32,000 bases of DNA from Acaryochloris thomasi RCC1774 (GTDB taxonomy: Bacteria; Cyanobacteriota; Cyanobacteriia; Thermosynechococcales; Thermosynechococcaceae). Location: the NCBI RefSeq assembly GCF_003231495.1, contig NZ_PQWO01000026.1, positions 1 through 32,000 on the forward strand. The letters run 5' to 3'. The notes beneath the pieces are model-generated. The model ran no database searches, was not told the DNA's origin, and saw nothing but the letters and a program-made list of their open reading frames with translations. Both the position numbers and the translations under genes were made by a program. Shown here piece after piece: positions 16,265 to 26,040 of this stretch; within the stretch, counting starts at the first letter, position 1; each line of letters begins with the position of its first letter.

Positions 16265-17122
16265 CTACTGAGGGGAGAACTGCTCAATGATGGGTTCATC
16301 CGCGACATCCTGCAGTCCGGCTTCAACGAGAAGATTGGACCAGTTACGACCCTGCGATCTCGCCGACCGGGTCAAGGTGTCATACCAAAAAACACTTTGA
16401 GAGCCTGCTACATCTGTGGTCGCTGCACTTGCTGACGGTGTGTTCGGCGCTGGAGATTCTCTTTTGAGCCAAGCATCGACGTAAAAGTACTCTGACTGAG
16501 CCGTAGAGTCACCGCAGTATAGTTTGAAGTACCAATGGTATTCCTGGTCAGGCTGCAGTGCATACTGCTCTGCATTGGGAAGATTGATGCCAATAGAACC
16601 GGATGCTGACGATAGCGGCAAATCGGTTCGGTAAAGATCTTCTCCGGCTTTATTCTGCAGCACAAATTCTCCCGCTCTCGCCTGATTGCCTGCAGGAACA
16701 TAAACCCAAAACGTGGGGTAAGCTACCGCGGTCGAAGCCATGTAAGAAATCGAACGTTGACTCTGTCCAGACGTGCTTTCAACACCAGGAACCAGCGCCG
16801 TCAGCGGCTTAGAGGCTGTTGGACAGTTATTCCGGCTAGCACCACCTCTGCGTCGTCCAGTGGGCGCGCCTCGATCTTTGAGCTTAGGCAGTGTGCCGGT
16901 TGCGTTATTGGGACTCGCTCCCCCCCTTTGACGCCCCACTGGGGCACCCCGATCCTTGAGCTTGGGCAGTGAGGATCCTTCAGATAGCTTTTTCACGCTG
17001 GTTGCAGCCGTCTGCGCCAGGGCAGAGAAAGGTGTGGCACCGAACAATAGGGGCAAAGCGATGCCCACTGACATCAGGGAAACTGACGAAGGCTTACTTC
17101 TCAGGATAGACGTCTTTTCCAT
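16265..17122 (-). CDS. DUF928 family protein with signal peptide
   Basis: YPTFWVYVP...GEFVLQNKAGEDLYRTDL...YHWYFKLYCG...YVDAWLKR is the DUF928 core. Start chosen at ATG 17122 (MEKTSILRSKPSSVSLMSVGIALPLLFGATPFSALAQ). The track start at 17185 would overlap the kinase gene by 85 nt. ATG 17074 is also possible. Confidence 0.8.
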   Translation of the reverse strand: MEKTSILRSKPSSVSLMSVGIALPLLFGATPFSALAQTAATSVKKLSEGSSLPKLKDRGAPVGRQRGGASPNNATGTLPKLKDRGAPTGRRRGGASRNNCPTASKPLTALVPGVESTSGQSQRSISYMASTAVAYPTFWVYVPAGNQARAGEFVLQNKAGEDLYRTDLPLSSASGSIGINLPNAEQYALQPDQEYHWYFKLYCGDSTAQSEYFYVDAWLKRESPAPNTPSASAATTDVAGSQSVFWYDTLTRSARSQGRNWSNLLVEAGLQDVADEPIIEQFSPQ

Positions 17123-19359
17123 AGGAACAGCACAGCTAGTTGGGCTGAGAATAATGCGATCGCGGCAGGGACAAGCGGAATCCATCCACCTTGAGTTAGT
17201 ATACCAAAGCTAATTCCGAACAGGAGGGTGAAGGACATTGCTCCTGCAATAGCGAGATATAGCGGTTTATGCACCGCCCAGGCCAATATGCCGCCCAATA
17301 ACGACCAGGCTCCGATCCAAAGCGCCTCTATCGGTAGGGACCACCACCAGAGTTGCGATCGCTCTTGCAAAGCAATGCTCAGCAGTTGGCTAATCATCTG
17401 AGCTTGAATAAAAACGCCAGGGGTCTGTTCTTGGCTGGGGTCAGCGGTATTGCTATAGGGCGTTTGCCAATTATCTGTGGTGCTCGGAGCCGTGATCCCA
17501 ATCAGAACAATCCGATCTTTGAGTGACTCTAGTGACTCGGGCGGAATTTTATTCTCTAATAGGTCTTGAAGAGAGATTTGCTCAGCAACACTGTCAACGG
17601 TCCGCAGCGAGCGATAGTTGAGCAATATTTGATGTCCAGAGTCATCAATCCCCTGATACCCACCTGCATGGGACGGCAAGGGTTTGAGGACCGCCGGACC
17701 CAGCGTCAGATTTCCGTCAGGGTTGGCACCGGGCTGAATACCGTCTGCGGCCAAGTAATGAGAGGCAAGCTGCAAACTGAAGGCATAATCTGCTGAGCAG
17801 CTTGAGTTGACCGGAGGTGTTAAATAGATCAGATGACGGCGCACGGTATTTCCGGCGTCATCAATAAAGTCGCTAAAGCCCACTCTATTGCTGGGTAGTT
17901 CGGCCGGAGGTGGGGTGGCATCCGGTGCACCGTCTAGGGGAGAAGCGACTTTGCAGATGCCGAAAAAATTGGGGTTTTGCTGAAGGCGCGTCGCCAGTTC
18001 TGGAACCTCAGGTGTCACTGAAAAATCGCGATAGATATCTAGCCCAATGGCTCGGGGCTGGTAGGTTTCAAGAGTTTCTAGAGCCTGATTGAGGGCCTGA
18101 TCTGAGAGCGACCACCGCATCGACATATTCTGCTGATTTTGATACTGAATGTCGGCTTCATCAACTGTGACTAGCAAGAGCCTAGAATCAGGCATATCAG
18201 CAGGGCGCAGCCCCATCAAATGGTCAAAGGCTTTTAACTCTAGAGGCTGTAAAACGCCCAGGTAACGAGCGCCGAAGATGAAGGTTGCGATCGCAACTCC
18301 TATCCCCAACACCCCCATCAGTGGCTTAACCATTCTGGTCTCATCACGAGTAGGGGCGGGACTCACAACCTCAGCAGTCGTCTCACCGGGGAGTGAAGGA
18401 CTGATCTGCTTCAACGTGGTGTTTTCTGAGGTCTCAGAGTTTGGAATACGGGTCTGTTCTAAGGGCGCATTAACTGCCTCTGACATCCAGGCAAGGCGCA
18501 GCGCCAGCACCTGAGCATTATACAAACGCTCCTCCGGGACAGGTGCAATCAATTCATCAATCAAATTGGCGAAGTGATCAGATATCTGCGGTGCCGCCTG
18601 TCTCCATTCCAGACGGCGTTCTTTATCTTTAGAGAACTCATCAGGACCAACCCCAGTGAGTAGATGCACAAAGGTACGACCCAAGGCAAAAAAGTCAGAG
18701 GAATAGTTCGCCTGTCCTTCGATCTGCTCTGGTGCAGTGTAACCAGGCGTGTAGATACGCGTGACGTCTTCGTCTTCCAGTTTTTTGAGATATGTCGTTG
18801 TCACCTTACGGGCAGCCCCAAAATCAATCAGGGAGACGCCCCCATCCGGACTCACCATAATATTGGAGGGTTTTATATCACGGTGAATCAGGCGCTGCTG
18901 ATGGATGCCCTCTAATATCGGGACTAATAGCTGTAGCCACTCGATCGCGAGTGCTTCCGAGAGCAACTCATTCTCAGCGATCCACTGCTGAAGATTTAAA
19001 CCGGGAATTTTTTCCAGGACGAGACAGTGCAGATCTTTGGGGCCATGCTCTGGCGTAAAGCGAAAATAGTTATCGACCCGAGAGACTGACAAGTGCTTTA
19101 GATCCTTCAGTATCTGAGCCTCTTGCTCAAATAACGTCACCAGCCTACGGCGCTGGTTCGTTAGGACTTTAATAACCTTGGGCACGCCTAGATTATCGAC
19201 CTCAAACACTTCCGTACAGTGATCGGCTTCTAGCTCCCGCAGCGGACGGATGATTCGATAGCGCTCATTGATAACCAGGCTGGTTCCACAAGTTTGGCAA
19301 TAATTGTCCTGCTCTGAATTTTGGCGTTGGGAACAATCAGGATTGATACAAAAACTCAT
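17101..19359 (-). CDS. Ser/Thr protein kinase with N-terminal zinc ribbon, TM helix, extracytoplasmic CHASE2 domain and C-terminal TM bundle
   Basis: 752 aa. Zinc ribbon CINPDC...CQTCG. Hanks kinase motifs VIKVL, HRDIKPSNIM, DFGAAR, YTPGYTAPE. TM helix VLGIGVAIATFIFGA. A CHASE2-like region (LLLVTVDEADI...IGLDIYRD...VGFSDFIDDAGNTVRR) is followed by 3 hydrophobic helices. Confidence 0.9.
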   Translation of the reverse strand: MSFCINPDCSQRQNSEQDNYCQTCGTSLVINERYRIIRPLRELEADHCTEVFEVDNLGVPKVIKVLTNQRRRLVTLFEQEAQILKDLKHLSVSRVDNYFRFTPEHGPKDLHCLVLEKIPGLNLQQWIAENELLSEALAIEWLQLLVPILEGIHQQRLIHRDIKPSNIMVSPDGGVSLIDFGAARKVTTTYLKKLEDEDVTRIYTPGYTAPEQIEGQANYSSDFFALGRTFVHLLTGVGPDEFSKDKERRLEWRQAAPQISDHFANLIDELIAPVPEERLYNAQVLALRLAWMSEAVNAPLEQTRIPNSETSENTTLKQISPSLPGETTAEVVSPAPTRDETRMVKPLMGVLGIGVAIATFIFGARYLGVLQPLELKAFDHLMGLRPADMPDSRLLLVTVDEADIQYQNQQNMSMRWSLSDQALNQALETLETYQPRAIGLDIYRDFSVTPEVPELATRLQQNPNFFGICKVASPLDGAPDATPPPAELPSNRVGFSDFIDDAGNTVRRHLIYLTPPVNSSCSADYAFSLQLASHYLAADGIQPGANPDGNLTLGPAVLKPLPSHAGGYQGIDDSGHQILLNYRSLRTVDSVAEQISLQDLLENKIPPESLESLKDRIVLIGITAPSTTDNWQTPYSNTADPSQEQTPGVFIQAQMISQLLSIALQERSQLWWWSLPIEALWIGAWSLLGGILAWAVHKPLYLAIAGAMSFTLLFGISFGILTQGGWIPLVPAAIALFSAQLAVLFLWKRRLS

Positions 19360-19402
19360 CTATTCTTCTCAGCAGGATTGTGGAATTGTCGCATCAACGC
19401 GC

Positions 19403-25484: not shown

Positions 25485-25497
25485 GAAGAATATCATC

Positions 25498-26040
25498 ATG
25501 GGAACCCATCGCTGTCCCGAGCCAAGTTGCTCCTTTTTTAATCAGGTACTACCCCACAATGCCAAAGTCTGCCCCATGTGTGGCACCCCCCTCGGGCAGG
25601 CTGTCCAAACCCTACCAGAAACAAGAAATTCCTACCCTCAGCCCTTTTCTTTACCGACCCAATCGGCTGACATACCAGTCGATCAGCCTCGCCCGCAAAT
25701 ACAGCTACACCATGCCAGTGGAGCAAGCTTTGTGCTGATTAGAGAATCGGGCATCATCGGTCGACAGAACTCAACAAGTGGGACTCGTCCCGAGATTGAT
25801 TTAACCAATGTTCCCCATGCAGGGGTCATCTCTCGCACCCATGCTCACCTCTTTTGGGATGCAGGACAAAGCACCTACATGGTGATTGATGACAGTCGTA
25901 ACGGCAGCTACCTCAATGGAGAACTCCTTTCTCGGGGTGCACCTCATCCCATTCATCAGGGAGATGAACTGCAGTTAGGTCAAGATCGACTGATTTGCCT
26001 TCAGATCGAACTGAAGCAACCAGCAAATCAGTTTGCGTAG
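25498..26040 (+). CDS. zinc-ribbon FHA-domain protein
   Basis: ATG at 25498 with AGGAAG RBS (the track start at 25471 is rejected). Zinc ribbon CPEPSC...CPMCG. FHA motifs IIGRQN...IDL...VSRTHAHLFWD...YMVIDDSRNGSYLNGELL...GDELQLG. Confidence 0.85.
   Translation: MGTHRCPEPSCSFFNQVLPHNAKVCPMCGTPLGQAVQTLPETRNSYPQPFSLPTQSADIPVDQPRPQIQLHHASGASFVLIRESGIIGRQNSTSGTRPEIDLTNVPHAGVISRTHAHLFWDAGQSTYMVIDDSRNGSYLNGELLSRGAPHPIHQGDELQLGQDRLICLQIELKQPANQFA

Follow-up and report, generated by a model that had tools for sequence, protein, structure and literature searches.

A conserved four-gene module at the locus

The window analysed here is a stretch of 32,000 nucleotides from the cyanobacterium Acaryochloris thomasi RCC1774 (contig NZ_PQWO01000026.1, positions 1 to 32,000). 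It carries the locus of a contractile injection system (CIS), as a preliminary description of the same DNA had recognised: cap, sheath, three tube and AAA+ genes lie at 663-9200, and gp25 and Baseplate_J genes at 28989-31618. The signalling genes are flanked by sheath, tube and ATPase genes on one side and by baseplate genes on the other. We mapped the genes by calling open reading frames (ORFs) and scanning them against Pfam and NCBIfam. The key object at this locus is a conserved module of four genes on the plus strand, rather than the CHASE2-linked kinase singled out previously. The module encodes a cytoplasmic histidine kinase (HK; 21545-22696; HATPase_c E=4.2e-27, HisKA E=2.7e-5), a response regulator (RR; 22690-23379) with REC and LuxR/GerE helix-turn-helix domains (PF00072 E=8.1e-20, PF00196 E=4.7e-19), a 696 amino acid pseudokinase (psK; 23394-25484) made up of a 4-Cys zinc ribbon, a Hanks-type kinase fold, a transmembrane segment and a PBP_like_2 domain, and a 180 amino acid zinc ribbon-FHA protein (25498-26040; PF00498 E=2.4e-13). 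The whole module (21545-26040) is tightly packed: its genes overlap or are separated by at most 14 nucleotides, and the start of the RR gene overlaps the stop of the HK gene. The membrane pseudokinase and the stand-alone FHA gene immediately downstream of it had been read correctly before, while the HK and the LuxR-type regulator that share their operon were absent from that account.

A scan with the psK alignment, limited to one genome per species, found 127 relatives; those among the matches listed are all cyanobacterial. We fetched 80 of the 127 loci with 10-kb flanks, from Nostocales, Chroococcidiopsis, Chamaesiphon, Gloeobacterales, Pseudanabaenaceae, Acaryochloridaceae and Thermosynechococcaceae. 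For comparison with the window, its proteins were searched in these loci by tblastn, and the ORFs of the loci were clustered all against all. Counts are given over 78 loci. The complete HK-RR-psK-FHA module, in the same order and orientation, is present in 71 of them, and six of the seven incomplete modules are cut by contig ends. Taken singly, HK is found in 74/78 loci and RR in 76/78, and the FHA gene directly follows psK in 75/78. CIS core genes are found in the flanks of 67/78 loci. Among the 38 loci that have at least 7 kb of sequence upstream and at least 9 kb downstream the figure is 37, and the single CIS-negative locus nonetheless has clade-specific accessory genes.

In all arrangements seen, the module lies between or beside the sheath/tube and baseplate operons. 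One metagenome-assembled genome (MAG) of the Acaryochloridaceae (locus L025) is co-linear, with the order AAA-HK-RR-psK-FHA-gp25-BaseplateJ. In a Nostoc group that includes ChiVER01 the module is directly upstream of gp25-J-P2_I-DUF4159, and psK is 68% identical to that of the window. In most Nostocales the module is divergent from the cap-sheath-tube genes and psK is about 41% identical. Culturable strains with the module include Dulcicalothrix desertica PCC 7102, Calothrix sp. PCC 7716 and Chroococcidiopsis cubana SAG 39.79.

The reverse comparison started from the sheath, with a metagenome scan that returned 80 loci. Where the sheath is at least 65% identical to that of the window and more than 3 kb is available upstream of the cap gene, the module is present in 4/4 loci (complete in L094, L095 and L099; partial in L101, at a contig end). 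At 57-63% sheath identity some loci keep HK-RR beside the cap gene, and some also psK/FHA or CHASE2 proteins. At 49% identity or less, no HK, psK or FHA match was found in 50 loci (532 kb). The association is specific to one CIS clade, of which the FHA protein together with the membrane pseudokinase is a conserved, essentially obligate accessory. We consider it very probable that all four genes are functionally dedicated to the CIS.

The psK product is identical (100%) to C1752_08859. Its Pkinase score (21 bits) is under the Pfam cut-off, and its AlphaFold model (12-sequence alignment, mean pLDDT 58.8) has a bilobal kinase fold; we use the model for the fold alone and not for the periplasmic domain or the active-site geometry. 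Its best matches are Staphylococcus aureus Stk1/PknB and Mycobacterium tuberculosis PknB (Foldseek E about 1e-10, target TM-score 0.64-0.68). In an alignment of 79 sequences the catalytic loop, HGNLSLNS in the window, has HGN for HRD (Asp to Asn199) and Ser204 for the catalytic Asn, both at least 95% conserved. The beta3 Lys (VKE) is retained, as are the alphaC Glu and the DFG Asp. By these residues psK is a pseudokinase that has lost the catalytic Asp and Asn but not the residues for nucleotide binding. Thr27 of psK is likewise at least 95% conserved. Receptor pseudokinases with Asn in place of the catalytic Asp are known, e.g., HER3 with its HRN motif. psK resembles the HER3 type in this substitution and in keeping the beta3 Lys and DFG Asp, and differs from it in being bacterial and in having an N-terminal zinc ribbon and a periplasmic PstS-like domain.

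A basic patch (KKRKKRSRK) is followed by the only transmembrane segment, at about residues 329-348. Based on these two features, the kinase-like domain is predicted to be cytoplasmic and the PstS-like domain to be outside. The latter is covered by the PBP_like_2 match (E=2.2e-10) at about residues 452-569 (window 24750-25100). In a profile alignment to 4q8r, which is a weak partial match (E=7e-8), the residues E-A-L stand opposite S-G-T of PstS. This suggests that the domain has lost phosphate binding and binds another ligand. A role as phosphate sensor is unsupported, as the SGT loop is not conserved, although the alignment is weak.

The psK family is small and sharply bounded, with 186 representatives at E<=1e-30 among 1.84 billion sequences. 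No annotation other than "substrate-binding domain-containing protein" or "serine/threonine protein kinase" is currently attached to its members; the genes of this family that carry the former name would be better described as CIS accessory pseudokinases.

The FHA gene starts at ATG 25498 (the longest ORF begins at TTG 25471). Its product aligns to FHA domains of the OdhI/GarA type. The phosphopeptide pocket (IGR, SRTHA and NGSYLNG, corresponding to GR, SxxH and NG) and the four N-terminal Cys are at least 95% conserved in 75 orthologues. Against TIGR03354 (VI_FHA), the model of the FHA protein of type VI secretion systems (T6SS), it scores 41.6 bits with a cut-off of 120.25, and the match is confined to the FHA domain.

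Upstream of the structural genes we find a promoter-region motif, ACAAAGGTCTAAT (594-606, plus strand; consensus ACAAARGTCTAAT), in the -35 region, 57 nucleotides from the ATG of the cap gene. A longer form, ATATCGACAAAAGTCTAATTAAC, is common to the cap/HK intergenic regions of the relatives and is followed after about 17 nucleotides by a TATACT-like hexamer. Of 21 non-redundant cap/HK intergenic regions, 16-18 contain 10-mers of the motif (shuffled sequences: maximum 3). The core ACAAARGTCTAAT lies upstream of the cap gene in 40/40 occurrences in related loci, at 33-80 nucleotides from the cap ORF in 39 mapped copies. The 13-mer core has a single match in the window (0.11 expected by chance); the 18-mer form has none at up to three mismatches. 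We infer that the motif is a candidate operator of the cap-sheath operon for the locus-encoded LuxR-type regulator.

Kinases at the locus and in its relatives

The kinase at the centre of the preliminary description is a 752 amino acid zinc ribbon-Ser/Thr kinase-CHASE2 protein (STK-CHASE2), encoded on the minus strand at 17101-19359. The transmembrane kinase with CHASE2 exists as stated (Pkinase E=8.8e-30, residues 62-285; CHASE2 E=3.5e-67, residues 358-691), preceded by a 4-Cys prefix domain (NF045510, E=4.8e-10). Such CHASE2 kinases have been listed under class cbSTKII (PMC2176072). It had also been called apparently active. The catalytic set (K64, E80, H159-R-D-I-K-P-S-N166, D179-F-G and, within GYTAPE, T208-A-P-E211) is indeed present, with the HRDIKPSN, DFG and APE motifs intact and the residues invariant or near-invariant across nine aligned family members. 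The glycine-rich loop GxGxxG, however, is missing. All nine members have RPLRELxxxHxTE(I/V)FE in its place, and the Pfam kinase match begins at profile position 28. Catalytic activity is therefore plausible, but would not be canonical. The family is large, with more than 2,100 members at E<=1e-20 compared to 176 psK relatives by the same kind of search. Residues 1-315 match the PADLOC anti-phage kinase model PD-T4-6 (PDLC04044, E=2e-97). A 4-Cys zinc ribbon of similar pattern (C-x2-7-C-x11-15-C-x2-C-G) forms the N-terminus of STK-CHASE2, psK and the FHA protein alike; of the three, only that of STK-CHASE2 reaches the NCBIfam "4-Cys prefix" model.

STK-CHASE2 belongs to a cassette (9303-21076) with the CIS ATPase gene directly on one side and HK directly on the other. 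It consists of two convergent units. The first, on the plus strand, encodes a TPS-domain exoprotein (9303-13340; TPS E=5.3e-47) and a TPR-CHAT protease-like protein (13344-16244; CHAT E=4.5e-63). The second, on the minus strand, encodes an HTH-NB-ARC STAND NTPase (19403-21076; Pfam), STK-CHASE2 and a DUF928 protein (16265 to about 17122, within the ORF 16265-17185; Pfam) whose gene overlaps the stop of the kinase gene. Adjacency of DUF928 and CHASE2 has been noted previously (PMC5587647). The four copies sampled from other cyanobacteria draw on the same families, and none of the four has a CIS gene less than 10 kb away; they are those of Nostoc punctiforme PCC 73102, Synechocystis sp. PCC 7509, Scytonema hofmannii PCC 7110 and a 175-kb metagenome contig. 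When we compared these CIS-free loci (L085, L087, L172 and L173) with 9303-21076 of the window, the gene order and orientation of the window were matched. The order NB-ARC, STK/CHASE2, DUF928 is identical in three of them, whereas L173 has DUF928 after TPS and CHAT; the TPS-CHAT pair of the window is also found in L085, L087 and L173. The CIS-free cassettes always hold NB-ARC or CHAT/TPS together with STK/CHASE2 and DUF928. All five families are present in N. punctiforme, while the Synechocystis copy is without NB-ARC and the Scytonema copy without CHAT.

The window therefore holds the same five families as this uncharacterised cyanobacterial cassette. Its copy differs in lying inside a CIS locus and in having no TpsB/ShlB transporter gene for the TPS protein in the window; a ShlB transporter accompanies the cassette in Synechocystis sp. 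PCC 7509. Three of the four CIS-free copies adjoin a divergent pair of HK and AraC-type RR genes, as the window copy adjoins the HK-RR of the CIS; this placement may or may not be meaningful. Among the psK loci, A. thomasi and its closest MAG relatives in the Thermosynechococcaceae are the only ones with the cassette. It is missing from the co-linear Acaryochloridaceae MAG (L025), where HK follows the ATPase gene after 382 nucleotides. Given this distribution, the cassette is an insertion at the ATPase/HK junction.

Active Hanks-type kinases are recurrent in loci of this CIS clade, but they are not conserved. A canonical kinase is found within 10 kb in about 21/78 loci, a lower bound, in at least four different architectures. 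A second FHA protein (cluster c8), which has no counterpart in the window, is encoded by the last gene of the sheath/tube operon in 32 Nostocales-type loci. It has an N-terminal FHA domain, a long acidic low-complexity linker and an MGS-like C-terminus (e.g., L073, 1715-3295, minus strand). In 11 of the 32 loci the next gene begins with a CHASE2 domain. In L073 this gene continues into a transmembrane region and a kinase with a GSGGFS loop; for the other ten only the N-terminal part, 50-74% identical to L073, lies within the flank. A different canonical kinase follows the second FHA gene in L028 and L032, and canonical kinases are found in this position in 13 Nostocales loci overall.

Kinases also adjoin the small FHA gene. 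Directly after it comes a canonical kinase (VALK, HRDLKPDN, DFG, APE) in Chroococcidiopsis (L023, L024) and Chamaesiphon (L074). In a metagenomic locus (L102, sheath 63% identical) the genes for a CHASE2-kinase (GEGGMS, VAIK, HRDIKPAN, DFG), psK, two FHA proteins, the cap and the sheath follow each other co-directionally (3257-9327, plus strand). To their left lie HK and RR, divergent from the kinase gene. To their right the sheath gene is followed by two tube genes and, further on, by a third FHA protein, of the zinc ribbon type, and a Pvc16_N protein. The 90 accessory gene clusters of the related loci include three further FHA clusters and two kinase clusters. The CHASE2-kinases linked to CIS genes have CHASE2 first and the kinase domain second, the reverse of the order in the STK-CHASE2 of the window. 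These opposite-order kinases, which occur in L102 and where sheath operons end, weaken the view that the CHASE2 kinase is wholly unrelated to the CIS.

Possible control of the machine by the module

The window contains an Afp/PVC-like, non-T6SS set of genes: sheath, tube, gp25, Baseplate_J, a Pvc16/Afp16 cap and an Afp15-like AAA+ protein. The solved structures closest to the sheath are those of the Streptomyces CIS-Sc, a cytoplasmic CIS (8BKY/8BL4, E=1e-112), followed by the membrane-bound haloarchaeal CIS (9EZM, E=3e-89); PVC and Afp sheaths are matched as well. A scan of viral contigs with the sheath gave three remote phage sheaths only (24-27% identity). The locus had been assigned to the extracellular CIS (eCIS). 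"Extracellular" should not be assumed, because the nearest sheaths are those of CIS-Sc and the haloarchaeal CIS; given this similarity, the machine may be cell-bound rather than released. Anabaena PCC 7120 has a thylakoid-anchored CIS with a 15-gene structural cluster (all3313-all3327; PMC8894136). Both machines come from cyanobacteria and have genes for the cap, the sheath, the tube and the baseplate, but they belong to different lineages. The Anabaena sheath (7B5H) is matched in its C-terminal part only and far more distantly (E=3e-51 compared to 1e-112 for CIS-Sc), so that we rejected an assignment of the locus to the Anabaena type. The words "kinase", "two-component" and "regulat*" do not occur in the report on the Anabaena machine (PMC8894136).

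How does the module act on such a machine? We lean towards the reading that HK, LuxR-type RR, psK and the FHA protein are dedicated to the control of one clade of cyanobacterial CIS and work as follows. psK would be a receptor-like sensor and scaffold, whose periplasmic domain senses an envelope or extracellular cue. The cue is probably not phosphate, since the SGT anion loop is not conserved in the (weak) alignment. A Thr on psK or on a CIS component would be phosphorylated in trans by a Hanks-type kinase, and the FHA protein would read the phospho-Thr mark. The signal would pass to the HK/regulator pair and on to the conserved motif before the cap-sheath operon. It may also reach the machine itself, through membrane recruitment or a firing licence, as for Streptomyces CisA and T6SS TagH. 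The writing kinase would be the variable part, as relatives carry CHASE2-kinases or other canonical kinases beside FHA genes. The only kinase at hand in the window is the STK-CHASE2 of the independently mobile cassette, and its link to the CIS is possible. The CIS of this clade is probably controlled by protein phosphorylation, somewhat like T6SS. The conservation of FHA and psK, together with the recurrence of Hanks kinases and extra FHA proteins, makes a phospho-threonine layer on a non-T6SS CIS a reasonable inference; that docking of the FHA domain to phospho-Thr is the operative step seems to us slightly short of an even chance.

Several points weigh against this reading. Its support is comparative throughout. 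An active kinase is found in only about 21/78 loci (10-kb flanks, lower bound), and many loci may depend on a kinase encoded elsewhere or do without one. No phosphatase has come to light. As had been reported for the window, there are zero PP2C/SpoIIE matches in the main window ORFs, a scan to which short, antisense-overlapping and gp25 ORFs were not submitted; and no PP2C is among the 25 most frequent families of the 90 accessory clusters, which leaves room for a single-copy case. FHA domains can also act independently of phosphorylation. The psK model is moderate (mean pLDDT 58.8), and the promoter motif is a candidate operator only, not tied to the regulator. Finally, the distances of psK, FHA, HK and RR follow those of the sheath (Spearman 0.89-0.93, Mantel p=0.001, 44 loci), but vertical descent shared by all genes would give this correlation too.

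The PpkA-PppA-Fha1/TagH system of T6SS (Pseudomonas aeruginosa H1, Agrobacterium, Serratia) is the precedent for control of a contractile machine by phospho-threonine, and the preliminary description had proposed an analogous switch here. The analogy holds in that the gene cluster of a contractile machine includes an FHA gene and a gene for a membrane protein of the Hanks type, and in that some members of this CIS clade have sensor-linked kinases. It does not hold in other respects. The machine is of the Afp/CIS type, with a Pvc16 cap and an Afp15-like AAA+ protein. The conserved membrane protein is a pseudokinase and not an active kinase (TagE/PpkA); no recurrent PP2C (TagG/PppA) is seen; the FHA protein is a 180 amino acid zinc ribbon-FHA protein far under the TagH/Fha1 cut-off; and an HK-LuxR pair shares the operon. 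With no conserved active kinase, no phosphatase and an FHA protein that is not TagH, the module does not belong to the T6SS threonine phosphorylation pathway. Some T6SS loci themselves keep tagH without tagE or tagG (PMC13584744).

The module is not described in the CIS literature that we searched, in line with the earlier statement that such control had not been reported for eCIS: FHA goes unmentioned in Chen 2019, Geller 2021, Weiss 2022, Casu 2023, the CisA paper and the archaeal T6SS paper. What it combines are known kinds of control. The reading proposed here joins T6SS threonine phosphorylation, eCIS GerE/HK regulators and CisA-type adaptors. To our knowledge, CisA is the first checkpoint proposed for assembly and firing of a non-T6SS CIS, and only the transcriptional regulators GerE, BTAD and RfaH have been pointed out in eCIS control. 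If the reading is true, phospho-threonine control of contractile machines extends beyond T6SS. The clade is present in at least 78 cyanobacterial species-level genomes, which offers a genetically testable control circuit, with a candidate operator motif now supplied for the sheath operon; ecologically important multicellular cyanobacteria carry such machines.

A simpler reading is purely transcriptional: HK-RR, psK and FHA would be a branched sensory system that sets CIS expression, with no post-translational gating. We regard this as possible but doubtful. LuxR/GerE and HK are already a known eCIS-associated pair. According to Geller et al. 2021 (PMC8213781), GerE lies beside 25.8% of eCIS loci, and 9% of these have an HK upstream of it. 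The window follows this pattern, with HK and then a GerE-type regulator beside CIS structural genes, except that here the pair is followed by psK-FHA; neither FHA nor a pseudokinase is mentioned by Geller et al. The position of the conserved motif in the -35 region of the cap-sheath promoter and the divergence of the Nostocales module from the structural operon fit as well. It is harder to reconcile with the modules of L025 and L102, which are contiguous and co-directional with structural genes, and with the extra FHA proteins embedded within sheath/tube operons. Related machines, moreover, provide precedents for membrane checkpoints in CisA and TagH.

It is also conceivable, although we put it forward only tentatively, that psK-FHA serves a cell-bound CIS, possibly one that mediates cell death, as a membrane checkpoint gated by phosphorylation. 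psK would respond to an envelope cue, would be phosphorylated in trans by interchangeable, often CHASE2-linked Hanks kinases and would recruit or license the baseplate through FHA. Such a checkpoint would have arisen convergently with the T6SS pathway, would correspond to CisA in function and would be coupled to HK/LuxR in one operon. The STAND/CHAT/TPS/kinase cassette of A. thomasi would plug a conflict-type sensor into it. CisA (SCO4242) is a membrane factor required for firing of the Streptomyces CIS-Sc and has been proposed to be a sensor and checkpoint (PMC12237407). It is encoded in the CIS cluster and is bitopic, with a largely unstructured cytoplasmic N-terminal part, one transmembrane segment and an extracytoplasmic solute-binding-like domain (PMC12237407). 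psK shares the bitopic topology and the location in the CIS cluster, and differs in having a kinase fold and a zinc ribbon in its cytoplasmic part. The words "FHA" and "kinase" are absent from the CisA paper, and no FHA partner is reported there (PMC12237407).

The preliminary description had itself paired the STK-CHASE2 of the window with the FHA protein in a sensor-kinase/FHA switch. FHA and psK are conserved with the CIS and kinases do recur in its loci, but the kinase chosen lies in a separate cassette. We think it unlikely that this kinase is a cognate, PpkA-like partner of the FHA protein or of a CIS component, in a T6SS-type checkpoint without a dedicated phosphatase. In its favour, none of the catalytic elements (K, E, HRD, DFG and APE) is disrupted, it is 2.2 kb from the module, and it has in common with psK and FHA an unusual 4-Cys ribbon at the N-terminus. 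Other loci of the clade repeatedly have CHASE2-linked kinases, and the cassette adjoins the two-component genes of the CIS just as CIS-free copies adjoin HK/RR pairs. Yet the gene is part of a self-contained cassette (with CHAT usual but not constant) that occurs in 4/4 sampled loci without a CIS, and that is found neither in L025 nor in any other clade. Its family is more than 2,100 strong, compared to 176 psK relatives, its kinase-then-CHASE2 order is opposite to that of the CIS-linked CHASE2-kinases, the Gly-rich loop is absent, and there is no phosphatase.

Could the pair be structural, with psK as a membrane anchor or adaptor of the baseplate and FHA as a fixed linker that needs no phosphorylation, like CisA or the haloarchaeal anchor? 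The topology of psK, with a cytoplasmic N-terminal region, one transmembrane segment and an extracytoplasmic solute-binding-like domain, is that of CisA, and the sheath is nearest to those of CIS-Sc and the membrane-bound haloarchaeal CIS. We nevertheless hold this role to be improbable: the phospho-Thr pocket of FHA is at least 95% conserved, and canonical kinases are recurrent neighbours. It is very improbable that the signalling genes lie in a variable part of the locus by chance, as passengers without a link to the CIS, and for the four-gene module this is already contradicted. The cassette and, at 26-28 kb, the low-GC genes do resemble insertions, and the cassette may be a passenger, but HK-RR-psK-FHA is tied to the CIS in 37/38 loci across orders and four gene arrangements, its genes are not found in distant CIS clades, and the psK family is very small.

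The structural genes and other features of the window

The structural genes are all on the plus strand. The first encodes the cap-like protein (663-1508; Pvc16_N and CarboxypepD_reg, PF14065 E=2.1e-16) and is followed by the sheath gene (1564-3279; Pfam sheath domains), three gp19-like tube paralogues (3332-3778, PF06841 E=1.3e-7; 4011-4475, E=3.1e-5; 4574-5113, E=2.6e-26), a second Pvc16_N-domain protein (5101-6528; PF14065 E=2.5e-35) and an AAA+ ATPase with winged helix and AAA domains (7146-9200; PF00004 E=3.9e-28, PF22977 E=9.6e-21) in an Afp15/Pvc15-like position. At the other end lie the gp25-like (28989-29411) and Baseplate_J-like (29411-31618; PF04865 E=5.4e-12) baseplate genes. The orthologue in a MAG (L001) carries GPW_gp25, with Tail_P2_I and DUF4159 after it. 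Pfam scans found no spike gene (VgrG/gpD and gpV OB fold) in the 32-kb window; it may sit outside. Relatives have a CIS_tube+GPD+Phage_base_V fusion after the FHA gene.

Between FHA and gp25, the GC content drops to 0.39 (26001-28500), compared to about 0.50 in the flanks. This stretch holds two orphan genes (26320-27300, plus strand; 27530-28426, minus strand) with no Pfam, NCBIfam or PADLOC match. The content of this slot differs between relatives, and for this reason the two genes may be cargo, effector or immunity genes. Rfam gave zero matches across the window, and no tRNA gene was found as the mark of an insertion site. At 16-29.5 kb, sigma-70 promoter-like sites are no more frequent than in shuffled sequences (13 compared to 14.0); terminator-like sites exceed the shuffled number (22 compared to 13.1, sd 3.1), but none is at a useful gene end.

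Two further sets of genes are worth recording. In the Nostoc group nearest to the window (L007, L009, L013, L016, L021 and L027), genes for a WD40 protein, a ShlB/TpsB-like transporter and a VWA7-Ig-like protein of about 740 amino acids lie upstream of HK; in the MAG relative of the window, WD40 and 741 amino acid genes come after DUF4159. Within the window, a small ORF of 130 amino acids (6626-7018, plus strand) lies between the second Pvc16_N and the ATPase genes. Its matches to HNH/GH-E nucleases are all sub-threshold (E about 5e-3), and a counterpart that is 34% identical occupies the equivalent place in L025.

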